From an uncultured bacterium (GTDB taxonomy: Bacteria > Babelota > Babeliae > Babelales > Vermiphilaceae): a stretch of 64,000 nucleotides of DNA. The stretch covers positions 928,001 to 992,000 of the forward strand of contig OY970212.1 in the NCBI GenBank assembly GCA_963713925.1, in the 5' to 3' direction. Under the pieces are notes generated by a model that saw only the letters and a list, made by a program, of their open reading frames with translations, searched no databases and had not been told where the DNA came from. Of the stretch, positions 24,756 through 40,316 are shown piece after piece (within the stretch, counting starts at the first letter, position 1; each line of letters starts with the position of its first letter). The position numbers were made by a program, and so were the translations under genes.

Positions 24756-25418
24756 TCAGCGAGATCTAGTGACGCCCTTGCGCTGGCACAAATCAAAGAT
24801 AGGGCATTTTGAGCAAAAGGGAGAAATGGGAACACATATGTTTTGCCCCCACATAACAAGCAAACGTGTGTATTGAATCCAATACTTTTTTGGCAACAGC
24901 TCCCGCAGTGCCTTTTCCGTTTCTTCAGGAGCTTTGGTTGAGACTAAGCCAAGCCGGTTAGAAATCCGATGAACATGAGTATCGACAACCATTGCAGGTA
25001 TGCCAAAGCCTTCGGCAAGGACCAAATTAGCGGTTTTGCGCCCTACCCCGGGCAATGTCAGAAGTTCTTCCATAGCATTGGGGACTTGAGATGAATAGTT
25101 TGAGATGAGAATGGCTGAAATTTGATGAATGGCGCGCGATTTGTTACGATAAAAACCCACCGGATAGATGAGTTTTTGAATCTGTTCCAAGGAAAGCGCA
25201 AGCATTTGAGAAGGTGTCTTTGCATGCTCAAAGAGCCTGATTGAAGCAGGCAACGAGACAGTATCTCTCGTTCTGAGGCTCAAAATACACGAAATAAGCA
25301 CTAAATAAGGGTCCCGCCCAAACTGATCGACTATTGAAATCGATGCAGGTGGCATCATGCCCTTGGTTGCTTTTTCGAGCGTTTTAATGATTAGTTCAAT
25401 ACGCCCTTCTGAAACCAT
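24756..25418 (-). CDS. nth: Endonuclease III
   Basis: LPGVGRKTAN HhH, VDTHVHR, C-x6-C-x2-C-x5-C Fe-S motif. Confidence 0.97.
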   Translation of the reverse strand: MVSEGRIELIIKTLEKATKGMMPPASISIVDQFGRDPYLVLISCILSLRTRDTVSLPASIRLFEHAKTPSQMLALSLEQIQKLIYPVGFYRNKSRAIHQISAILISNYSSQVPNAMEELLTLPGVGRKTANLVLAEGFGIPAMVVDTHVHRISNRLGLVSTKAPEETEKALRELLPKKYWIQYTRLLVMWGQNICVPISPFCSKCPIFDLCQRKGVTRSR

Positions 25419-25426
25419 CTCGATAA

Positions 25427-25537
25427 TTAACGGAATGGAGGAAACTCTTCAGCAAACACGATTGCCGCAATAACAAATAGGGCAAGTTTAACGTAATCAG
25501 AGTTTACAAAAGCTATAATATTCTTTAGTTTATTCAT
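25427..25537 (-). CDS. Short hydrophobic peptide 1 (36 aa, ends FPPFR)
   Basis: MNKLKNIIAFVNSDYVKLALFVIAAIVFAEEFPPFR; AGGAG RBS 7 nt upstream; divergent from regulator 1. Confidence 0.65.
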   Translation of the reverse strand: MNKLKNIIAFVNSDYVKLALFVIAAIVFAEEFPPFR

Positions 25538-25598
25538 AAGTGGACTCCTGATAAAACAATCTGACCCAAGTATAACCACTTGGCAACCTAAGATCAAT

Positions 25599-28304
25599 AT
25601 GATTGATAACTTTTTAACATTATTCGAACAAGCCTTTGGCAATAATTATTCCCTTTTGGTATTTTTAACGATCTCCTTCTTGGTAAAGGGATATCTTTTT
25701 ATTTATCTCACAATAAAAGGGATTATCAATTCTTCTAAAATTTATCGTCCGGTCCCCCTGCTCTTGCTTGTTCTTTTAAGCGGAATTATTCAAGATTCGG
25801 CCTGGATCGCTAGGCTCATTGGCCGTATTTTCTTCGCATCCAGTCAACCATCTTTGTATGTTGCGGGATGGGTTATCTTTTCCTGGGCCTTTCCTACCAT
25901 TCAATATCAAGCGGTGGCACTTTTTCTTGAATCGCTTGTAAACCAACAAAGACATTTTTCCGGGAGGAATATTCTTACCTCACTAATAAGTGTCGGATTC
26001 AGCATCTTTTTTGTTGCTGCCGGCATACTCAATTTACTTGATATTCGCAGTTTGGATATGCACATAGTGCAAGAATTCTGCAGTTTATATTGCATTTTAT
26101 TTTTAATGCCTTTGAGTATAATAAACGTATTTTTGAAAATGAAAAAAAGCACGGTTCCTGAGATTCTCAGACAGCAATTATTGATCATTCTCAAGTTTTT
26201 TATCTACCCGCAACTTTTTTGTGATTTTATTCAGTTATATCCATTTAAAATTGTATCCAACAGCACTCTTGCAAATAGTTATGGCATGGTTGGTCTCTCG
26301 ACTATCTTACTTGCATGCGCTATGTACTATTGCACCCGGCGAATCATTGCTCTCAGATTCTTAAATATTAAAGAGCACGTTGAAGCTGCCGATCGTTTTA
26401 ACTTCGTTAACAGCTTTAAAGATGTGCTTGAACAGTTTAGCTCGGTAACTAATGTGAAAGAGTTGGCTTATATCACGCAGACCTTCTTTAAAGAAAATTT
26501 TAATATTCCTCTCTCAAAAATACAGGTTCACATCAGGAATGATGGCAAGAAAGAAGGTTCTCTTTCAAGTAGGCCTGAGCTGAGCACCATTGAGGTCGTC
26601 GCTGAAACATTTGTAACTACCCATTATCAAAATATCGCTGCTAAAACTGAAGAAGTTCTTATTTTTGATGAAATTGCGTTTAACAGCTTTTATGGGACAA
26701 AAGATCAACGCCAAGAGCTACACTTTTTAGAAACTATTAATGCTGATATCTTTTTGCCTATCTTCAAAAATGATTCTGTGATTGCCTATATCATAGTTGA
26801 GCGGTATGCGCGACCCAAAGAATTTTACAGCACCGGCGAGCGGGATGAGATGGTTATATTTGCTCACTATTTGGGCAACATGATCCACCTACTCAAAAGC
26901 AGGCAGCTGGAATCGATTATTCAGCAGGAAAAAGAACTCAAAGAAGAGATTTACAATAAACATCAAGAAATCAATCAATATAGAGAAAGCATTCGATCCT
27001 TTTTGCGTAACAAGCCAAAAGAGATTGGCATCTTATTTTATAAGAATCGAAAGTTTATCTTCGGCAATCAGACAGCCCAAGAACTTGTGAAGGTGAATCC
27101 CAACACGCAAGAGGGTCACCCATTTGTGAAAGCAATCAAGCAAATAGCCACCATGGTTGAAGAATACAAGTCACCGCAAAATACGATTTATGCCGAATCT
27201 CCTGATCAAAAATATGTCATATCAGGTGTGCCTAATATTGAAAAAAACAATGTGATCATCACAATCTATCCGCCAGACATTTCTGATATCATAAAGCGAC
27301 AATTCAGTAGCTTGAAAGATCCGAGTAAATGGGATTATTTACTCTATCTTGAAACGACTCAATCGGGACAACTCATCAATCAAATGATCCCGGGAAATAG
27401 TGAGACTATTCTTCATTTCAAAATTGATCTACTCAAGCTCGCGCTGAATAAAAAGGCTATTTTAATCGATATGCCGCAAGAAGACACTCTTTCGATCGTT
27501 GAGATTCTCCATCATATATCATTGCGCGAGACACTCCATGTGATGCATATCAAAAGTCCATCTTCACATGCGGAACATGCTATCAAGCTCTTTGGAATCA
27601 ACCCCATTTTTTCTATGAATAAAGATACACAGTCACTGCTTGAAAAGCTCCATAACGTCGGCACGCTTTTTATTGAAAACATACACTTGCTTGAACTTGA
27701 AACTCAGGAATATTTGGCTGAATATTTACAATACGGCATGTTTCGCGTGTACAAAAGTGATCAACGAAAAGAAGCGAATGTACGCATTATCTGCTCAAGC
27801 AATCAGGATTTAACCTATCTCAGTCAACAAGGAAAATTTTCAGCTAACCTTCTTGCCGAATTGAAAAAAACACAGATTAAATTCCCCTCATTGCACGAAC
27901 TTCCACAAGAAGAACTTTCAGAACTCACTGAAGGATTCTCTCATGGCATGCTTCAAAACCAAGCCTATTCGAGTCTCTTGGAATTGACCGACCGAGAAAA
28001 AAATAGACTCATTGAATCGCGTCCGGTGAGTTTTAAGGAGCTTAAGCAACGAATTCAACAACTTATGCATAATAAATCAAAAAAGAATGAAATTGAGCAT
28101 GAAACTCATTTCGACCCAGCATTTGTTGATATTTCAAATCCTGAGCTTCTGCAAGCTGTCAGACTTGGCAAACACGCACTGCGCGACAAACGGGTCATGA
28201 CTATGTTGTGGAACAAATTTAAGAATCAGAATAAGATTGCGTCATTCTTGGGCGTTAACAGATCGTCAGTAAACCGACGCTGCAAAGAATTCAATCTTGA
28301 ATGA
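25599..28304 (+). CDS. Membrane-anchored regulator 1: multi-TM sensor, GAF/PAS-like region, degenerate sigma54-activator AAA+ domain, Fis-type HTH
   Basis: About 7 TM segments in the first 250 aa; GTLFIENIH, NVRIICSSN; HTH NQNKIASFLGVNRSSVNRR. Confidence 0.85.
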   Translation: MIDNFLTLFEQAFGNNYSLLVFLTISFLVKGYLFIYLTIKGIINSSKIYRPVPLLLLVLLSGIIQDSAWIARLIGRIFFASSQPSLYVAGWVIFSWAFPTIQYQAVALFLESLVNQQRHFSGRNILTSLISVGFSIFFVAAGILNLLDIRSLDMHIVQEFCSLYCILFLMPLSIINVFLKMKKSTVPEILRQQLLIILKFFIYPQLFCDFIQLYPFKIVSNSTLANSYGMVGLSTILLACAMYYCTRRIIALRFLNIKEHVEAADRFNFVNSFKDVLEQFSSVTNVKELAYITQTFFKENFNIPLSKIQVHIRNDGKKEGSLSSRPELSTIEVVAETFVTTHYQNIAAKTEEVLIFDEIAFNSFYGTKDQRQELHFLETINADIFLPIFKNDSVIAYIIVERYARPKEFYSTGERDEMVIFAHYLGNMIHLLKSRQLESIIQQEKELKEEIYNKHQEINQYRESIRSFLRNKPKEIGILFYKNRKFIFGNQTAQELVKVNPNTQEGHPFVKAIKQIATMVEEYKSPQNTIYAESPDQKYVISGVPNIEKNNVIITIYPPDISDIIKRQFSSLKDPSKWDYLLYLETTQSGQLINQMIPGNSETILHFKIDLLKLALNKKAILIDMPQEDTLSIVEILHHISLRETLHVMHIKSPSSHAEHAIKLFGINPIFSMNKDTQSLLEKLHNVGTLFIENIHLLELETQEYLAEYLQYGMFRVYKSDQRKEANVRIICSSNQDLTYLSQQGKFSANLLAELKKTQIKFPSLHELPQEELSELTEGFSHGMLQNQAYSSLLELTDREKNRLIESRPVSFKELKQRIQQLMHNKSKKNEIEHETHFDPAFVDISNPELLQAVRLGKHALRDKRVMTMLWNKFKNQNKIASFLGVNRSSVNRRCKEFNLE

Positions 28305-28316
28305 TGCGAATCAAAT

Positions 28317-28394
28317 TTAATCGTTCGGTGGAAATCTCATCATTACCGCGATGAGAAAAACTACTGAAAAAAATTGAAATAGTAACGTACTCAT
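28317..28394 (-). CDS. Short hydrophobic peptide 2 (25 aa, ends FPPND)
   Basis: MSTLLFQFFSVVFLIAVMMRFPPND; GAGGA RBS; divergent from regulator 2. Confidence 0.6.
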   Translation of the reverse strand: MSTLLFQFFSVVFLIAVMMRFPPND

Positions 28395-28476
28395 ATATCT
28401 TCCTCGAAAGTTATTCGTCCTTTCCCTCCATGTTGCAATCTCTTTATGATGTTGTAGTATAGTGACATTATAAAGG

Positions 28477-31221
28477 ATGATCAATAATATGCTGAACATT
28501 TTTCAATCTGTATGTGAATTAATACACAGCAAGCATTTCTTTTTTATAACCCTCATCTTTGTTCTATGCGCGAAATGTTTTCTTTTTATACAACTCATCA
28601 ATAGAACAAAACATTCTACAACTCAGCGTTTATCTATTTTGCTATTACTCGGAGTCATTATAGGATCTATAGCCGGCGATGTCAGCTGGTTTATTAAATT
28701 GTTGAGAGATTTATGGATTACAACCATCCCATATACAGTTAATATTTTTGGGTTAAGAATAGCGTGGGCATTTCTTATCATTCAATATCAGTCGCTCGCC
28801 CTCTTTATAGAAACGGTTCCTCAAAGAATTTTTCGATTAAAGCGCATGCATTTTGTATCGTTAGCTGTTAGCTGCGCGATCGCTTGTTTTTTTGTGTACA
28901 TTGCTTTTTTTGAACCCACCCTTCTTACACAAGTTGAGCGGCACCTTGCATTTAACGAAACAAATCCACAATTAATTCCTTGGGAAGTGCTTGTCATGAG
29001 ATATGTGAGTCTCTATCTCATTCCTATTTTTATGCTTTCCAGCCTCTTTTATACATTCAAAGCAATTTCTTCGCGACGATTGCCCACCCTACTTAAACGG
29101 CATATGTCAATTCTTGTACAATATTTTCTAACTCCATTCTTTATTGCGGAATCTATCGTTGCTATTCATATGAATGTCAAATCGCTTAACATATATTCAA
29201 GTGGAATCCTAAGTATATCGAATATTCTTTTGACCTGTTCTCTCTATTATAGCATTCGCACAATTTTAAATCTTCGATTCCTCAATCTTGACGCTCATAT
29301 TCCTGCCCGTCAACGCGTCAATTTTATAGAGCATTTCAAAGAAGCTCTTGAGACTCTGAGCAAAGTAGGAAATATCGAAGAGTTAGTTCAAATTACTCAA
29401 ACATTCTTTAAAGAAGCCTTTGATATTCACAATAAAAAAGTCACTCTCCACATCAAAAATCTTTCGCCGGAATCTACATCAGCAACTCCAGATAAAGTGA
29501 ATCCGCTTGAGCAAAGCATTGAACAATTTTTGCTCACATTGACCGAAAAAGAATCCGAGTGTCTGAAAAAATTAAAAATCTTAATTAACGATGAACTGAG
29601 CTTTACCGAATTTTATAACCCCAGCCCGATACGACACAAGTTCATACAATTTTTGCAGGATAATCAGTTGGATATCTTCTTACCCATTTATAGAAACAAC
29701 ACAATTATTGCACACATTAGCGTTGGGTTGAACGCACGGCTGCAACATAACTATACGCTCGCTGACCATGATGAAATGCTTGTTTATAGCACCTACTTGG
29801 CAAGCGTTATCAATTTGGTTAGAAATCGTAATCTCAAGCAGCTCATTCAAAAAAAACATATATTGCAAGATGATGCATTTCTCAAACATCAGGAAATTAA
29901 CTTATACAAAGAAAGTATAGAAGCTTTTATAAAAACAAACGCAACCAAGCACATCGGTATTTGTTTTTATAAAAATAATAAGATTACTATTGCGCATATC
30001 CTTTCCCACGGAATTATTAACCAACAGATTATTCAACAAGATCGTCATCCGCTCACCAAAGCAATCAAGGAAATTGGCGATCAAGTAGAACAGTTCAAGA
30101 CTCCTGCTACGCAGTTAATTAATTATGATGGTATACGCATTGTGTTAACCGCCGTCTCAAACCTTGAACGACAAAATGTGATCGTCACGTTATATCAACC
30201 GGAAATTTCGGATGTATTAAAACATAAAATAAATGTATTGAAAGACCCTGAACGCTGGAACTTCTTGCTCTACCTTGAAACGACAAAATTGGGCGCCAAA
30301 ATCAACCAGCTCATTCCAAGCGATAGTGAATTGATGCTCAATCTCAAGATTGAGTTGTTGCAAAATGCTATTAATCGAAAAATCGTACTTCTCAATGCCC
30401 CCGAAGAAGATATTCAATCGCTTGCACAGGTGATGTGTCAAAGCAGCGCTCAAAATATGCTCCATATATTGTCACTCAAATATCAGGCTCAAGATGCAAC
30501 CTATTATAAAAAGATGTTTGGAGATCACTCAGTTTTCGGTTCACATTCAGAACCGGCTCTGCTTGAGAAAGCTAATAATAACGCGACAATTTTGATAGAA
30601 AATATTCATTTCCTCGATTTGCAAACGCAAGCAATGCTTGCGCACTACAACAAAACGGGTGCCTATAGCCCATACCACAGCAGTGCACTCACCGAATCAC
30701 ACGTTCGTATTATATGCACCACCAACCAAAGCATCTCCAATCTTCTGCTTGAGAATAAGTGTGACTATGCATTGTATGAAATACTCAAAGATTCGAGCAT
30801 GAGCTTTCCTTCTCTACTGACCCTCCCGCATGAAGAATTAGAAGGATTGGCGCATGGATACTTACATCAGTTATTGCAACAAGATGAATTTAAAATTACT
30901 ATACCACCAACAAATAAAGAGATCTCGAACATTGTCAGAACAAAACCGACTAGTTTGACTGAATTAAAACGCAAAGTAAAAAATCTTCTCACGGCTCAAA
31001 AAGAATCGCTTCCCGATTCTGATTTTGAACATGCACACTCAACTGCATCTCAAGAACATGAGATCATCCATGCAACCAGACTTGGAAAAAAAGCCTTACA
31101 AGACCCGGATATTATGCGCGTTTTATGGCAAAAGTTTAAAAATCAGAATAAAATTGCTACCTTTTTAGGAGTAAATAGATCATCAGTTAATAGACGCTGT
31201 AAGGAATATCAGCTCCAGTAG
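28477..31221 (+). CDS. Membrane-anchored regulator 2 (paralogue of 25599-28304)
   Basis: Shared IQYQ..ALF.E, LRFLN, ITQTFFKE, KHQEIN, LLYLETT and near-identical HTH. Confidence 0.85.
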   Translation: MINNMLNIFQSVCELIHSKHFFFITLIFVLCAKCFLFIQLINRTKHSTTQRLSILLLLGVIIGSIAGDVSWFIKLLRDLWITTIPYTVNIFGLRIAWAFLIIQYQSLALFIETVPQRIFRLKRMHFVSLAVSCAIACFFVYIAFFEPTLLTQVERHLAFNETNPQLIPWEVLVMRYVSLYLIPIFMLSSLFYTFKAISSRRLPTLLKRHMSILVQYFLTPFFIAESIVAIHMNVKSLNIYSSGILSISNILLTCSLYYSIRTILNLRFLNLDAHIPARQRVNFIEHFKEALETLSKVGNIEELVQITQTFFKEAFDIHNKKVTLHIKNLSPESTSATPDKVNPLEQSIEQFLLTLTEKESECLKKLKILINDELSFTEFYNPSPIRHKFIQFLQDNQLDIFLPIYRNNTIIAHISVGLNARLQHNYTLADHDEMLVYSTYLASVINLVRNRNLKQLIQKKHILQDDAFLKHQEINLYKESIEAFIKTNATKHIGICFYKNNKITIAHILSHGIINQQIIQQDRHPLTKAIKEIGDQVEQFKTPATQLINYDGIRIVLTAVSNLERQNVIVTLYQPEISDVLKHKINVLKDPERWNFLLYLETTKLGAKINQLIPSDSELMLNLKIELLQNAINRKIVLLNAPEEDIQSLAQVMCQSSAQNMLHILSLKYQAQDATYYKKMFGDHSVFGSHSEPALLEKANNNATILIENIHFLDLQTQAMLAHYNKTGAYSPYHSSALTESHVRIICTTNQSISNLLLENKCDYALYEILKDSSMSFPSLLTLPHEELEGLAHGYLHQLLQQDEFKITIPPTNKEISNIVRTKPTSLTELKRKVKNLLTAQKESLPDSDFEHAHSTASQEHEIIHATRLGKKALQDPDIMRVLWQKFKNQNKIATFLGVNRSSVNRRCKEYQLQ

Positions 31222-31227
31222 GAAAAA

Positions 31228-32181
31228 ATGGAATCGGTGGAACTCAACATCTCTCAAGAAATTTTTAAAGAATTATCACATGAATTCATACTCCACCTGC
31301 AAGTTGAGCGACGCGTTTCAGAGCATACCATTCGCGCATACACCGGAGATCTGACAGATATTGTTCATTTTTGGACTTCACTATCAGAAGATGATCAAAA
31401 ACATCTTCCCTTCAAACAAATACTCGATCGATACATGATGAGTATTTTTTATAAAAAAATCAGTAAAAGTTCTATTGCTCGTAAATTCTCTTGTCTACGC
31501 TCATTTGAAAAATTTCTGCTCAAGCGGGGAATTCGATTAGCGCTCAAAATAAAACGACCACGCATAGAAAAAAAATTACCGGTCTATTTAAGCATTGATG
31601 AAATCACTTATCTCCTTGACGGCATTTCTGACAAAGAGCTGTTGTGTCAATATCCTTTGCGCGATAAAGCAATTTTTGAACTGCTCTATGCAACCGGAAT
31701 ACGATGTTCAGAGCTCGTTTCAATTTGCATGCGCGATCTTAATATGCACGAAAAAACAATTCGCATATTTGGCAAAGGAGCAAAAGAGCGCATTGTGTTG
31801 TTCGGCCAGCGAGCAAAAGAACGCCTGGAACTTTATTTGCAAAAGGAACGAGCTTTTGTTAAAAACACGGATGAGCGTCTGTTTTTGAACAATCGCCATG
31901 AACCGCTCACGCAACGGAGCATTCAAAGAATTATCGAACATTTCAGGATGTTTCTAAAAACTCCCCGAGAGATTACGCCTCACAAGCTACGACATTCATT
32001 TGCAACGCATTTGCTCAATCAAGGGGCCGATCTGAGAGCCGTTCAAGAACTGCTGGGGCATGCGAGTTTGACAAGCACCGAAAAATACACTCATGTCACC
32101 CTTGAAAAATTACACCAACTATGCAATGATATTCATCCGATTAATGATATCATGAAGTCCATGAAAAAAAATGAGGACTGA
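31228..32181 (+). CDS. xerC: XerC/XerD-type tyrosine recombinase
   Basis: LYATGIRCSE, GKGAKER, TPHKLRHSFATH, LLGHASLTSTEKYTH. Confidence 0.88.
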   Translation: MESVELNISQEIFKELSHEFILHLQVERRVSEHTIRAYTGDLTDIVHFWTSLSEDDQKHLPFKQILDRYMMSIFYKKISKSSIARKFSCLRSFEKFLLKRGIRLALKIKRPRIEKKLPVYLSIDEITYLLDGISDKELLCQYPLRDKAIFELLYATGIRCSELVSICMRDLNMHEKTIRIFGKGAKERIVLFGQRAKERLELYLQKERAFVKNTDERLFLNNRHEPLTQRSIQRIIEHFRMFLKTPREITPHKLRHSFATHLLNQGADLRAVQELLGHASLTSTEKYTHVTLEKLHQLCNDIHPINDIMKSMKKNED

Positions 32182-33905
32182 TGCTTATTCATTGGCCATC
32201 AGTGCGTCGCCAACTTACTACAATTGTTTTTGTCTCGTTCTGCGCGTCTCTTATCATCATATTTCGCCTCTTTTATCTGCAAATCATACTCGGTGATATC
32301 TTTTTCTCCCAAGGGGAAAAAAATTTCTTAAGAACCGAAAGAATCCCTTCTCCGCGGGGTGACATAGTCGATAGCAAAGGCCGATTTTTGGCCACCAATC
32401 AGCCAACGGCTGACCTCTATTGGCAAGGGACCGGAAAGAAGAAGTTTGATGAAGCGCAAAAGAAAGTTATTGATCGATTAATAAACATTTTAGGAATTCC
32501 CGAGGAGCAAACTCTTGAATTTCAAGCGATGATTCTTTCAGCCGAACGATCATATCAGCCGATCCTTATGCTCAAGGATCTTTCTTTTGATCAATTAAGC
32601 AAAATTCAAGAACAGTTTCCTGAGACTACAAATATTTTTATAAAAAACAGTTTCAGGCGATATTATCCGTATGGAGCATATGCCAGCCATGTCGTTGGCT
32701 ATCTGGGCCAACTGAACATGGAATTATCCGGAAAAATGGGGCTTGAGCAGATCTATCAACAACACTTGCAAGGCGAGCAAGGCGTTATCTTAAAAACCAT
32801 CAACTCAATCGGGAAAAAGCTCAATCAACAAGAATTGAAAGAGTCACAAATCGGTAAAACAATTCAAGTGACCATCGATATCGATCTGCAATCTGCGATT
32901 GAAAAAGTGTTTCCGGAAAATTTGTCCGGCACCTGCATTATCATGGATCCTTCAGACGGTTCGCTGAAAGCACTCGTCTCTCGGCCTCATTTTGATCCAT
33001 CTTCATTTTTAAAACAGATTACCCATGGTGAGTGGCAACTTCTGCAAGAAAATCAGCGATTTTTAAACAGAGCGTTGAATGCGACATACCCCCCCGGCTC
33101 CATTTTCAAGCTCGTGACAACGGCCGCCGCACTCGAGCATGACATCATTAAACCGGAAGATAGTTGGTATTGTAAGGGCTATGTTACTTTTGCACATCGG
33201 CAATATTGGTGTGCAAATCGCGCCGGACATGGCTCGTTGAGCGCGCGTAAGGGATTGGCAAAATCATGCAACACTATGTTTTTTGACATTGCAAAGCGTA
33301 TTGATATTGATGCACTCGCCGATTACGCGTATCGTTTTGGCCTGGGCAGATCAACCGCACTGCCATTTGCTCAAAAGAATGGGCTGATCCCTTCAAAGTC
33401 ATGGAAACAAGCAGCAAAAGGTGAACGCTGGTGGCCGGGAGAGACATTGTCGGCAGCTATTGGACAAAGTTATCTGCTTGTTACCCCAATACAAATTGCG
33501 CGCATGATTTCCGGAATTTTCACCGGATATTTGGTCAAACCGCGCATTTTAGTTGAGGATCCAATAGATATCGAACCATTGAATATCAAACCGGAAACAC
33601 TCACCTTTTTGAGAAAATCGATGAAATCAGCCATTAAAATGGGTACTGCTCAAAAGCTGAAAGTATTGAAAAATTTTGAGATTTACGCAAAAACATCAAC
33701 AGCTCAAACAAGCGCTTACAACAAGCGATGCCTGGGAAGTGTTTATTTGGAACACGGCTGGTGCGTCGCGCATTTCAAGTATAACGATAACGAACCGTTG
33801 GTGATGGTGCTTTTAGTCGAACATGCCGGCACGTCGCGAGTGGCAACTGATATTATCGGGAAGTTTTTATTAGAGTATAGAAAGCTGTGCAAAGAAGTTG
33901 TTTAG
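32181..33905 (+). CDS. mrdA: Penicillin-binding protein 2 (class B transpeptidase)
   Basis: PRGDIVD, RYYPYG, PGSIFK (SxxK), SCN, KTS. Confidence 0.92.
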   Translation: MLIHWPSVRRQLTTIVFVSFCASLIIIFRLFYLQIILGDIFFSQGEKNFLRTERIPSPRGDIVDSKGRFLATNQPTADLYWQGTGKKKFDEAQKKVIDRLINILGIPEEQTLEFQAMILSAERSYQPILMLKDLSFDQLSKIQEQFPETTNIFIKNSFRRYYPYGAYASHVVGYLGQLNMELSGKMGLEQIYQQHLQGEQGVILKTINSIGKKLNQQELKESQIGKTIQVTIDIDLQSAIEKVFPENLSGTCIIMDPSDGSLKALVSRPHFDPSSFLKQITHGEWQLLQENQRFLNRALNATYPPGSIFKLVTTAAALEHDIIKPEDSWYCKGYVTFAHRQYWCANRAGHGSLSARKGLAKSCNTMFFDIAKRIDIDALADYAYRFGLGRSTALPFAQKNGLIPSKSWKQAAKGERWWPGETLSAAIGQSYLLVTPIQIARMISGIFTGYLVKPRILVEDPIDIEPLNIKPETLTFLRKSMKSAIKMGTAQKLKVLKNFEIYAKTSTAQTSAYNKRCLGSVYLEHGWCVAHFKYNDNEPLVMVLLVEHAGTSRVATDIIGKFLLEYRKLCKEVV

Positions 33906-35942: not shown

Positions 35943-37550
35943 TCAATTTTCAGGGTAAGATAACCCGACAATCTCATATGCCTTTTTGCCATCAACGGTT
36001 TCTTCCTTGAGCAACTCTTGCGCCAAGCGCTCAAGCTTATCCTTATTTTCAGTCAACAAGCCCTTTGTTTTTGCCATGCATTCATTGAGCAAGTCTTGAA
36101 CCAACCGCTCAATTTTGACCGCTATTTCAGGAGCCAAAGAAAGATCCCGATCGCTGTAAACAGCCACTCCCAACTCTTCACTCATGCCATATGAACGAAT
36201 CATGTGGCGAGCAATGTTGGTTGCCTGGTTGAAATCATGCCAAGCACCGTTATTTTGCGCACCACACGCTATTTCTTCAGCGGCTCGACCTGCAAGAAAT
36301 ATGCATATTTGAGCCATTAACGCTTCTTTCGAGCTTGAAAAACGCTCGTCTGCAAAATCGTCCCAATAAGTAACCCCGAGCGCCCCGCCCCGCGGTACGA
36401 TAGTAATTTTATGTAGTGGAGGAACAAGACCGGCATGAAGCATCTGAACCAATGCATGTCCTGCTTCATGATATGCCGTTTCGCGCTTTTCTTTCTCATT
36501 CATACGCCGATAGTCTTTGATCGGACCCATGTTCTGTTTATCGTACGCTTCTTCAATATCTGCCTGCGTGATACCCGCGCTCCACGGGTTACGCGCGGCC
36601 AAAATAGCTGCTTCATTGAGTAAGTTCGCCAAATCGGCACAGCTAAATCCACTCGTTCTGCGCGCGATAACATCGAAATCAATCTCGCCGGTAAAATGTT
36701 TATCTTTCGCATGAAGTTCAAGCACTTCTTTTCGTGCAGCTCTATCCGGGTACGGAACTTCAATGTGTCTATCAAATCGTCCGGGACGCAAAAGCGCCTC
36801 ATCGAGAATATCTTTTCGATTTGTCGCGGCTACAACAATAACATCATCTGTTGTGGAAAAGCCATCCATCTCGGTCAAAAGCTGATTCAATGTGACCGCA
36901 AATTCATCGGCTCCGCCAAATGCTTCAGTTCTTTTTTTTCCGATTGCATCTATTTCATCAATAAAAATGATGCTTGGTGCATGCTTTCTCGCTTTATCAA
37001 AAAGATCTCGAACACGCGCAGCGCCAAGACCAACCCACATTTCTACAAATTCGCTTCCGCTGACACTATAAAAAGCACAATGGGTTTCACCCGCCAATGC
37101 TTTTGCTAAAAGCGTTTTTCCGTTTCCGGGCGCGCCAACGAGCAAGACGCCGCGCGGAGGTCGCGCGCCAAAACGAGTGTATTGTTCTGGAGATTTTAAA
37201 AAGCGAACAATGTCAGAAAATTCATCTATGATTGATGACATACCGGCAACGGAAGCAAACGTTTCATCCGGAAAGTAAGATTCAACTTTTTTTTGTTCTT
37301 GTTGATTTTGACCGTCATATTTGTGATGGACTGTGATGCCGATATATTTCATGAATAATACGGTCACGCACATCGTCGTTAAGCTCGTAAGCGCTGTGTT
37401 TACTTGATTGCGCCAATTTATATAGCTCCTCCACGGCAATGGTTGCTCACCAGCTCTTACTTGCAAGAAAGGTGTCACCGGTATCGCAATAGCTAACAAA
37501 AGATATGCTTTTCGCGCACCAAACGCGCGTACATTTTTGTTTTTGAACAT
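35943..37550 (-). CDS. ftsH: FtsH-family ATP-dependent zinc metalloprotease (second paralogue)
   Basis: [27 protein letters not shown]; start placed at MFKNK. Confidence 0.93.
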
Positions 37551-37623
37551 GGAGTCTCCGATTGTTTTTGTTATCAATCCTAGAATGATCAGCAAATCAA
37601 TTATAAAGACTACTAAAAAAATG

Positions 37624-38429: not shown

Positions 38430-40316
38430 TTATAATGCCGCAGGTTCTCCCTGGGTGTCAGGGTTTTGCCCACCCTCAATCTTTGCTTCAGGATATTCAA
38501 GCCCAATCACTTGGTATACCTCTTTGGCATCAAGAGTCTCTTTTTCAAAGAGCGCTTGCGCCAAGGCATCCAGCTTATCTCGATTTGTTCTTAGAAGCTC
38601 CTTGGCTTTGTCCAAACAGCTTTGAAGAAGGTCTTGAACAGCCTTATCTATCTTTTGCGCAGTGGCTTGAGAATAAGGGAATTCTCCATAGCCTGGTTTG
38701 TAAAGCACCGGACCAACCTCAGGGCTCATGCCCAAATAGCAAACCATATAACGGGCCATGTTGGTTGCATTTTCAAAATCACCCCCAACGCCTGAATCCT
38801 GAGTATTGTATACTACCTCTTCAGCTGCACGCCCCCCGAGAGTCATGATAATTCTTGCGACTTTTTGCTCTTTTGTTTCAGTGTGTTTATCACGCTCCTG
38901 AGCAAAGAAGGTAACTCCAAGAGCCCGACCACGAGGAACTATGGTAACTTTATGTAAAGGGTCTTTTAATTGACCGTACAGAATTTGACCCAACGCATGT
39001 CCTGCTTCATGATATGCAACCAGCTTTTTATCTTCGGGAGTCATATGAGAAGTCACCCATTTTTTACCCATAACGATCTTATCGTAAGCTTCCTCAACAT
39101 CGTGCTGTGTAATTCCTTTACGGCCATCAGCTTTTGCCGCGATCAAAGCAGCTTCATTCATAAGATTAGCCAAATCTGCTCCGCTAAAACCGGTAGTTCT
39201 ACCCGCAAGCCTGTCGATATCTATCGCATCTTGCCATATTTTATCTTTTGCATGGAGTTTGAGAATTTGTCTTCTGCTTTCTTTATCAGGGAATGGGACA
39301 GTCACATGGCGATCAAAGCGGCCCGGTCTGAGCAACGCCTTATCAAGTACATCCGGTCTATTGGTTGCTGCAAGCACAATAACAGGAGCAGCACCCATGG
39401 TTGTAAAGCCATCCATTTCTGCTAACAATTGGTTGAGTGTTTGTTCACGCTCATCATTTCCTCCGCCACCGCCGGCAGTTCTTTGACGTCCAACCGCATC
39501 AATTTCATCAATGAAAATGATGCAAGGCGAATGTTTGCGCGCTTGTGCAAAGAGGTCACGCACACGTGAAGCGCCAACGCCAACAAATACTTCTATAAAA
39601 TCTGAACCGCTTAAACTAAAAAAGGCGCAATTGGCTTCTCCGGCAACCGCTTTGGCAAGCAAGGTTTTCCCATTTCCTGGGTCGCCCACCAAAAGAACTC
39701 CACGAGTCACCTGAGCACCGAATCGATTATATTTTTCAGGATTTTTTAAATACTCAACAACATCCTGCAATTCTTCTTTTGCTTCTGCCGCACCGGCTAC
39801 TGAGCTGAATTTTTCCTTAATAGAACCCGGCAAATACATGCGAGCTCTGCTCTTACCCATCGAAAAAATAGTGCTGCCAGAATTGTTTGAGCTCCCTGAT
39901 GCTCGTTGTCTGATGATAAGCCACACCATTCCTGCGATGATAGGAAGTAGTAAGAACAACATCAGGAACAACCAACCGCTGGACAATCCCGATAAGAATG
40001 ATCCTTCGCTGACAGAAATGGAAACTTTGTGTTCGCGCATAAGATTTGTGTCAGATGGATTGTTTTCAAGAATCGTTGACTCAAATCGAGTTCCGTCTTT
40101 CAAGAGTCCGCCCACTTGCTTGCCTGCTATTTTGACCGAAGCAACCTTATCTGCTTCAACCTGGGAAATAAAGTCAGAATAACTAAGCACCTTGATCGGA
40201 CGAGTAAATTCACTCATCTTGGTCAAAAGGCCAAGCCCTATAAGAATAATGGAAGCGAACACGATGACCGTGCTGATTCCATTGGAAAAGAAAAAGTTAT
40301 TATTTTTTTTACTCAT
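38430..40316 (-). CDS. ftsH: ATP-dependent zinc metalloprotease FtsH
   Basis: Two TMs with periplasmic domain, [25 protein letters not shown]. Confidence 0.97.

Follow-up and report, generated by a model that had tools for sequence, protein, structure and literature searches.

A short Pro-Pro peptide gene paired with a seven-helix membrane regulator in the Babelota: a candidate peptide-signalling system

Known peptide-signalling systems and the window locus

Quorum sensing has been sorted in a review into four basic circuits; where the signal is a peptide, known from Gram-positive bacteria, it is perceived either by a cytoplasmic RRNPP protein or by a histidine kinase (PMC5007282). We describe a locus whose probable signalling architecture is apparently undescribed, resembling RRNPP or Agr-type systems in its likely working and belonging to neither. 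It lies in a stretch of 64,000 nucleotides (nt) from an uncultured bacterium of the Babelota (the window, to which positions refer), and consists of two tandem modules, in each of which a short pre-peptide gene ending in or near a Pro-Pro motif is encoded back-to-back with a membrane-bound regulator. Babelota (Dependentiae or TM6) live inside protists. Our reading, to which we assign a probability of roughly two in three, is that the peptide is a released pheromone, exported and then read by the one-component membrane receptor-regulator encoded beside it, in the manner of quorum sensing.

The RRNPP systems (Rgg/SHP, Rap/Phr, NprR/NprX, PlcR/PapR, AimR/AimP) are likewise one-component, and in them too a small pre-peptide gene adjoins the receptor gene and encodes a basic N-terminus, a hydrophobic leader and a short C-terminal mature peptide. 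The propeptides found here (18-64 amino acids, aa) fall within the 10-100 aa expected of such systems, and the genes are direct neighbours for 113 of 132 regulators. Within Phr and NprX precursors the mature peptide is repeated, and orphan receptors are known as well (PMC5199041), two traits of Rap/Phr that have their likeness in the Babelota; and the paralogues Rgg2 and Rgg3 have one operator in common (PMC5007282), an arrangement that we infer here from a near-invariant helix-turn-helix (HTH). In RRNPP systems, however, the receptor is a cytoplasmic tetratricopeptide-repeat (TPR) protein of 250-500 aa (PMC10075063), whereas here it is an integral membrane protein of 901-914 aa with seven predicted transmembrane (TM) helices (7TM) and no TPR match, which rules out membership. 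Furthermore, no OppA was found for re-import in the window genome (G000; one 1.32-Mb contig, 95.75% complete), and the RRNPP systems are those of Firmicutes, whereas our bacterium is diderm and intracellular. A first-pass annotation of this DNA had likened the locus to streptococcal Rgg/SHP; the analogy holds for the gene layout and breaks down at the receptor and its missing importer.

The Agr (AgrBDCA), ComCDE and ComQXPA systems have a polytopic membrane sensor that reads its peptide at the cell surface, as would be the case here, and in Agr sensor and peptide diversify together. Membership of the Agr/ComD group is nevertheless ruled out: the receptor proteins have no kinase domain, the sensor being fused to a DNA-binding domain; G000 has no receiver domain, and no two-component system was found in it (the only HATPase_c matches, two in number, look like GyrB and MutL); and searches of that genome for AgrB and Rce1-like proteases found none, AgrB being absent from the conserved neighbours as well. 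Nor do the peptides have a conserved Cys or Trp for cyclisation or prenylation. In the ToxR/CadC family, too, a single inner-membrane polypeptide both senses and binds DNA, with one TM helix and an N-terminal winged HTH as against the seven predicted helices and C-terminal Fis-type HTH found here; these proteins are not known to have a self-made peptide ligand. Atypical enhancer-binding proteins (TyrR, DhaR, NtrX, VpsR) similarly place an NtrC-family AAA+ core and a Fis-type HTH behind a GAF domain, but here all nucleotide and sigma-54 motifs are lost (132/132), the sensor is a predicted seven-helix membrane domain and a peptide gene is paired with it. Peptide-binding G-protein-coupled receptors (GPCRs; class A and fungal Ste2) and bacterial HisKA_7TM sensors share the 7TM fold and N-out/C-in topology predicted here, and the yeast alpha-factor precursor contains repeats, resembling the repeat-containing precursors described below. 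In contrast to GPCRs, to which identity is 5-12%, there is no G protein and the output is the fused HTH. None of 130 members matches the Pfam model HisKA_7TM (PF16927) at E <= 0.1.

We found no description of the Pro-Pro peptide or its pairing in the literature, most subscription papers and supplements being outside the coverage. In their accessible text, a paper on Chromulinavorax reports no quorum sensing (PMC6561590), PMC6944256 merely lists HisKA_7TM, and PMC12172432 has no passage on the subject.

Pairing of the peptide gene with the regulator

The two regulators lie in tandem on the forward strand, regulator 1 at 25599..28304 (901 aa) and regulator 2, with the same architecture, at 28477..31221 (914 aa from its first ATG); the usual family spacing to the peptide promoter suggests that the true start of the latter is probably the ATG at 28489. 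They are 36% identical, in agreement with the first-pass description of two tandem paralogues of ~900 aa. That annotation had also noticed a small open reading frame (ORF) on the opposite strand before each, and here too its translations and Shine-Dalgarno (SD) sequences agree with ours: AGGAG, 7 nt before the ATG, and GAGGA, the small ORFs starting at distances of 61 and 82 nt from the ATG of the respective regulator. Pre-peptide 1 (25427..25537, reverse strand, 36 aa) has, from its translation, SD and family alignment, a basic N-terminus, a hydrophobic leader and the predicted mature C-terminal (E)EFPPFR; its ORF has already been called in public collections, as an unnamed protein. Pre-peptide 2 (28317..28394, reverse strand, 25 aa) translates to a hydrophobic leader and the predicted mature RFPPND, which belongs to the [RK]-x-PP class, 12 of the 114 peptides of the family. 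Among the 213 SD-led intergenic ATG ORFs of 15-70 aa in G000, only these two combine hydrophobicity with a Pro-Pro near the end. No variants were seen in one DNA run.

Sequence comparison indicates that the pairing is real, conserved in most of the Babelota and apparently undescribed. Of the regulators at 139 loci and in the window, 132 remained once redundant and incomplete copies and those preceded by less than 400 nt of DNA had been set aside. For each, among antisense ATG ORFs of 14-70 aa at a distance of 40-260 nt, the one with the highest-scoring SD was picked, prolines being ignored. Pro-Pro occurs in the ORF so chosen for 113 of the 132; the same rule gives 14 of 420 for control genes of G000 (a background slightly overstated, the control still including the two window regulators) and 0 of 102 for flanking genes. 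Since the SD score and distance range had been chosen after the first loci were inspected, two held-out sets were run. A metagenome set of 71 full-length copies, reduced to 61 that are non-redundant with enough upstream DNA and then to 45 with a TM domain less than 70% identical to the training set, gave Pro-Pro in 31 of the 45, and 8 of the 14 misses, on our reading, have an SD-led hydrophobic ORF in which the motif is a variant with one Pro. Homologues of the regulator thus keep a short divergent Pro-Pro ORF upstream, which was the check that the first-pass annotation had set. For the most divergent receptors a Pro-Pro ORF was found in 13 of 26 (one a duplicate of L041, two without upstream DNA); in most of those lacking Pro-Pro a signal-peptide ORF occupies the corresponding spot, ending in WPA, FPF, PSF or similar, and the motif drifts where the third TM helix (TM3) drifts. 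No peptide gene was found upstream of the full-length receptors at L006 (first copy), L010, L025, L032 and L035 (second copies) and L110, which are possible orphan receptors. At L146 and L147 (genomes G005 and G002) the receptor frames have ~800 instead of 900 aa, long pre-peptides still being present, and at L167 (G180:C34) a single receptor has two tandem, near-identical pre-peptide genes upstream, like whole-gene phr duplications.

The regulator is present in 185 of 261 Babelota genomes, and the TM profile matches 142 of the 191 genomes of at least 90% completeness. Seven small or mid-sized families (f4, f6, f13, f15, f16, f18 and f19) gave no match to either query, and whole lineages may have lost the system or never had it. 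Among 1.84 billion proteins the sensor-region profile recovered 466 clusters, the best 150 of which are mostly of ~900 aa or shorter pieces; named relatives of the regulator come from Dependentiae/Babeliales or unclassified bins, a few of them with other labels.

The conserved unit of the precursors (median 32 aa, n = 114) is a signal-like leader followed by x-x-P-P-x-x. As to a putative secretion signal of the Sec or PptAB type, which RRNPP propeptides have, Lys or Arg occurs among the first 10 residues in 105 of the 114 and a hydrophobic core in 103, and the last Pro-Pro stands 1-3 residues before the stop in 98, tails after it spanning 0-12 residues; in long forms the motif lies up to 29 residues beyond the hydrophobic core. 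All four synonymous Pro codons are in use at the Pro-Pro, which argues that selection acts on the protein, and six close pairs of equal length differ by 25 synonymous and 34 non-synonymous codon changes, with second positions the least changed. The first-pass annotation had singled out an FPP ending and an IA motif: the Pro-Pro stands, with Phe before it in just 23 of 129 motifs (Trp in 15, Gly in 15, Val in 10, others in the rest), and IA is not conserved across the family. Two to three motif copies occur in 12 of the 114 precursors (e.g. DFPPMG three times at L090, SVFPPIS twice at L134), and further repeat precursors outside those 12 are found at L144, L153 (five units), L159 (three units) and L242 (held-out set); such repetition suggests that a short Pro-Pro peptide is the functional unit. 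The 2-5 repeats at L153, L159, L144, L090, L134 and L242 are partly non-identical, and are candidates for specificity intermediates. In 43 peptides Asp, Glu or Gln stands two residues before the Pro-Pro, and Ala, Gly, Ser or Cys comes right before that unit in 25 of the 43, a pattern to be expected of cleavage by signal peptidase I (within the hydrophobic core these residues make up 19%). Peptide 1 has a signal-peptidase-I-like site (VFA, then EEFPPFR) and peptide 2 has none; besides signal peptidase I, G000 encodes a single M50 protease, of the RseP/Eep family. The TM domains and peptides have no NCBIfam match.

A putative sigma-70-type promoter faces the peptide genes. Of the 114 regions 95% reach a score of 11 or more, as do 23% of shuffled sequences, with a 17-nt spacer in 95 of the 114 and a -35 box mostly 3-7 nt from the regulator ATG. 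In the window both predicted promoters match the consensus kept across the family, reading TTGATC-17-TATACT on the reverse strand, at 25569..25597 for peptide 1, where 1 nt separates the end of the -35 box from the start codon of regulator 1, and at 28456..28484 for peptide 2.

Predicted receptor structure and covariation with the peptide

An AlphaFold2 model of residues 1-440, built on an alignment of 131 sequences (predicted local distance difference test, pLDDT, 90; predicted TM-score, pTM, 0.88), has seven long helices (16-253) followed by a GAF-type domain. Lys and Arg together number 2.9, 2.7 and 4.4 in loops 1, 3 and 5 as against 0.9, 1.5 and 0.5 in loops 2, 4 and 6, and this positive-inside bias predicts an N-out/C-in topology. 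Compared with 48,161 solved chains, the model has GPCRs or GPCR-fold proteins as all of its top 50 matches (best Z 17.1, root-mean-square deviation 3.8 over 225 residues). We predict from this model that the sensor has a GPCR-like seven-helix fold in GPCR order; homology and G-protein coupling are not claimed. Within the Atlas the sensor domain reaches template-modelling scores (TM-scores) of 0.63-0.70 to bacterial 7TM sensors and GPCRs, and in the nearest clusters (language-model features, score 0.92) 16-21% of members carry HisKA_7TM; no sequence relatives of the sensor region were found in the PDB. The helices hold conserved polar residues (K30, D66, W69, R93, W96, E154, Y164) that would suit a ligand pocket.

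On the structure model, the fold search, Pfam/NCBIfam and motif-loss alignments, regulator 1 is divided into the GPCR-like bundle (residues 16-253), the GAF domain (269-434), a linker with a putative PAS-like region, an apparently ATPase-dead NtrC-like AAA+ domain (~600-835) and a Fis-type HTH (~870-901). Where the first-pass annotation had seen a GAF/PAS-like middle, GAF is upheld by the model and by Atlas matches, and PAS found no match in profile and alignment searches. Its sigma54-activator-like domain survives as an NtrC-like core: the C-terminal half aligns with NtrC-family structures, the best profile matches being PspF, NtrX, DhaR and TyrR, all far under the cut-off, and Walker A, the DE of Walker B and GAFTGA are each present in 0 of 132 copies. 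No RpoN scored above the family cut-off in any of 94 genomes, which together with the lost motifs rules out a sigma-54-dependent activator.

The HTH motif NRSS[VI]xxR is kept in 125 of the 132 copies. Over 26 tandem pairs the median identity is 0.29 for the TM domain, 0.44 for GAF, 0.57 for the PAS-like region, 0.56 for AAA and 0.78 for the HTH; the corresponding figures for the window pair are 25% (TM), 38% (GAF), 37% (AAA) and 69% (HTH), with 26 of the last 31 residues identical. The HTH is thus the most conserved part, as had been claimed, and divergence extends beyond the sensor ends to the GAF and AAA domains. Tandem pairs with two peptides have no hexamer in common (0/17). Paralogues with different peptides and nearly the same HTH would feed several inputs into one regulon, and it is in this sense that we infer convergence on one operator, for which our searches came back empty. 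At L095 the tandem paralogues are 96-100% identical in the PAS-like and AAA regions as against 42% in the TM domain, which looks like gene conversion sparing the sensor.

Similarity between peptide motifs follows TM identity when the core is removed (partial rho 0.21 over 114 pairs; maximum of 300 permutations 0.12), and follows neither the core with TM removed (-0.01) nor GAF (0.03). The strongest column association joins the residue before the Pro-Pro to receptor position 99, in TM3 (z 10.8): column 99 is aromatic in 22 of 31 receptors whose peptide has a small residue before the Pro-Pro, against 15 of 83 others, and in 2 of 42 with an aromatic residue, against 35 of 72. With the rule fixed in advance, 31 held-out pairs gave 0/14 versus 8/17 for aromatic with aromatic (Fisher p 0.003) and 6/10 versus 2/21 for small with aromatic (p 0.006). 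The proposal of cognate peptide/receptor pairs accordingly gains support from the pairing itself, from the synonymous Pro codon use, and from motifs that track the 7TM domain and not the core.

Proposed mechanism, rival explanations and neighbouring features

Beyond what is directly supported, namely the gene pairing, the conserved SD, the promoter consensus, the Pro-Pro motif with its repeats, the dead AAA+ domain and the absence of an RpoN match, we propose that the pre-peptide would be exported through Sec and cleaved by signal peptidase I or, for leaders without such a site, like that of peptide 2, by an RseP/Eep-type protease, the mature product being a Pro-Pro peptide of 5-8 residues. 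This would bind an outward-facing 7TM pocket of the cognate regulator at TM3, and the signal would be relayed via GAF to the AAA+ domain, acting as an oligomerising scaffold, and to the HTH, whose binding at sigma-70 promoters would change from the membrane, with need of neither phosphorelay nor re-import. The lifestyle suggests as a likely use that siblings or kin sharing a host cell or vacuole are counted, and that this count sets the moment of changing from replication to release.

Several observations weigh against the pheromone reading. Known pheromone genes are usually autoinduced, and no operator or autoregulatory site was found here, a palindromic expectation-maximisation search of 114 intergenic regions giving just SD and promoter signals. 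The peptide gene adjoins the TM domain, and linkage alone can explain a partial correlation between them. Among phylogenetically independent pairs the column-99 covariation runs in the same direction in about 4-6 cases versus 1 opposite (median p 0.125-0.25, not significant), and by side-chain volume column 99 is just fifth among the negative correlations (rho -0.35). An Arg of TM3 that is otherwise 93% conserved is absent from window regulator 1, and a clear hydrophobic stretch is missing from 8 of the 114 precursors. With Foldseek no match reached E <= 0.001, GPCRs and GAF sensors standing at about 0.01, and Z scores of 13-14 can be reached by unrelated helical bundles, for which reasons we claim a resemblance of fold and not descent. 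Finally, the Babelota envelope is diderm, of the Gram-negative type (PMC4776705, PMC6561590), which leaves the exit of the peptide through the outer membrane without explanation.

This last point would be no obstacle to a ligand whose action is confined to its own cell, whether as a membrane-tethered or periplasmic modulator or as a reporter of secretion and envelope-protease activity. MgrB acting on PhoQ offers a likeness for the modulator, the pairing and covariation would fit equally well, and in most peptides (75 of 103) the motif lies 0-4 residues past the hydrophobic window, directly behind the helix, so that the active form could be tethered to the membrane. We nonetheless regard such a ligand as rather unlikely, since a released unit is suggested by the motif repeats, by the long soluble spacers and by sites resembling those of signal peptidase, and since rapid, lineage-specific change of the motif better suits a private signal between cells. 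It is also conceivable that the regulator controls the peptide as its product, be it a small effector for secretion or a peptide aimed at the host, and that the receptor senses a host molecule instead; the promoter is strong and conserved, GPCR-fold pockets accept many ligand types, and Babelota genomes secrete many unknown proteins (PMC6561590). This seems improbable to us, as each receptor copy has its own distinct peptide, duplicated along with it, and the motif tracks the TM domain instead of the DNA-binding core, with TM3 covariation replicated in held-out pairs and motif drift accompanying TM3 drift.

Pro-Pro is established to slow ribosomes, and the endonuclease III gene nth (24756..25418, reverse strand, identified by Pfam) begins 8 nt 3' of peptide 1, with nth lying 3' of the peptide in 74 of 114 cases; the ORF might hence be a leader or ribosome-stalling peptide controlling nth, or else belong to an antisense RNA transcript. 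We hold this to be very improbable: the distance between peptide and nth can be as short as 2 nt or as long as 244 nt, and 25 of the 114 peptides face just the tail of another regulator, with no downstream gene. Peptide 2 has this arrangement, facing the 3' end of regulator 1 with no gene 3' of it on its own strand, as the first-pass annotation had rightly pointed out. Arrest peptides, moreover, are not characterised by a signal-like leader, by repeats or by tails that extend 0-12 residues beyond the Pro-Pro, and the peptide locus has no Rfam match.

If the pheromone reading is true, the module would represent a third receptor class for bacterial peptide signals, in a diderm, obligate intracellular phylum with few reported regulators (five are predicted in Babela; PMC4378268), and a bacterial sensor of GPCR fold would have been given named ligands. 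The peptide/receptor pair would also be a strong candidate for controlling the infection cycle in G000, where no two-component system was found. More than 140 natural peptide/receptor pairs and a candidate specificity position are at hand, and the system can be tested without culturing the organism. A wider interpretation, on which we are evenly divided, would see here a bacterial counterpart of peptide-hormone/GPCR signalling, in which a diffusible Pro-Pro pheromone, released from a precursor that in some cases holds several copies, and a GPCR-fold receptor wired to DNA make up a fifth quorum-sensing architecture and a master switch for kin counting in the protist and for developmental timing.

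The module occupies a conserved slot, which in the window spans 24756-33905: among 50 loci, 44 have nth on one side, and on the other 36 have a XerC-type recombinase and 35 a penicillin-binding protein. These neighbours serve repair, chromosome resolution and wall synthesis, the penicillin-binding protein being named by a reading of its sequence, and nth is a conserved neighbour that is probably not part of the signalling unit. A genome-wide dyad analysis of G000 had put forward TTTCW-N3-WGAAA as an operator (24 occurrences versus 6.9 expected), a candidate that was dropped because it does not track the presence of the regulator over 94 genomes. This dyad is enriched upstream of G000 genes, often for secreted proteins (e.g. 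at C1:500757, 808106 and 1020758), and may be the site of another factor. The same genome carries a hairpin repeat with the core [GT]GGG-N-CCC[CA], with 105 of its 166 matches in intergenic DNA, which makes up 12.5% of the genome (e.g. C1:27489, 44264 and 315975), and a second enriched repeat with CCTGAA-N5-TTCAGG arms, both of them like repetitive extragenic palindromes or miniature inverted-repeat transposable elements (REP/MITE-like). Two genes for FtsH-like AAA metalloproteases, named by sequence motifs, lie close to one another in the window, at 35943-37595 and 38430-40316.

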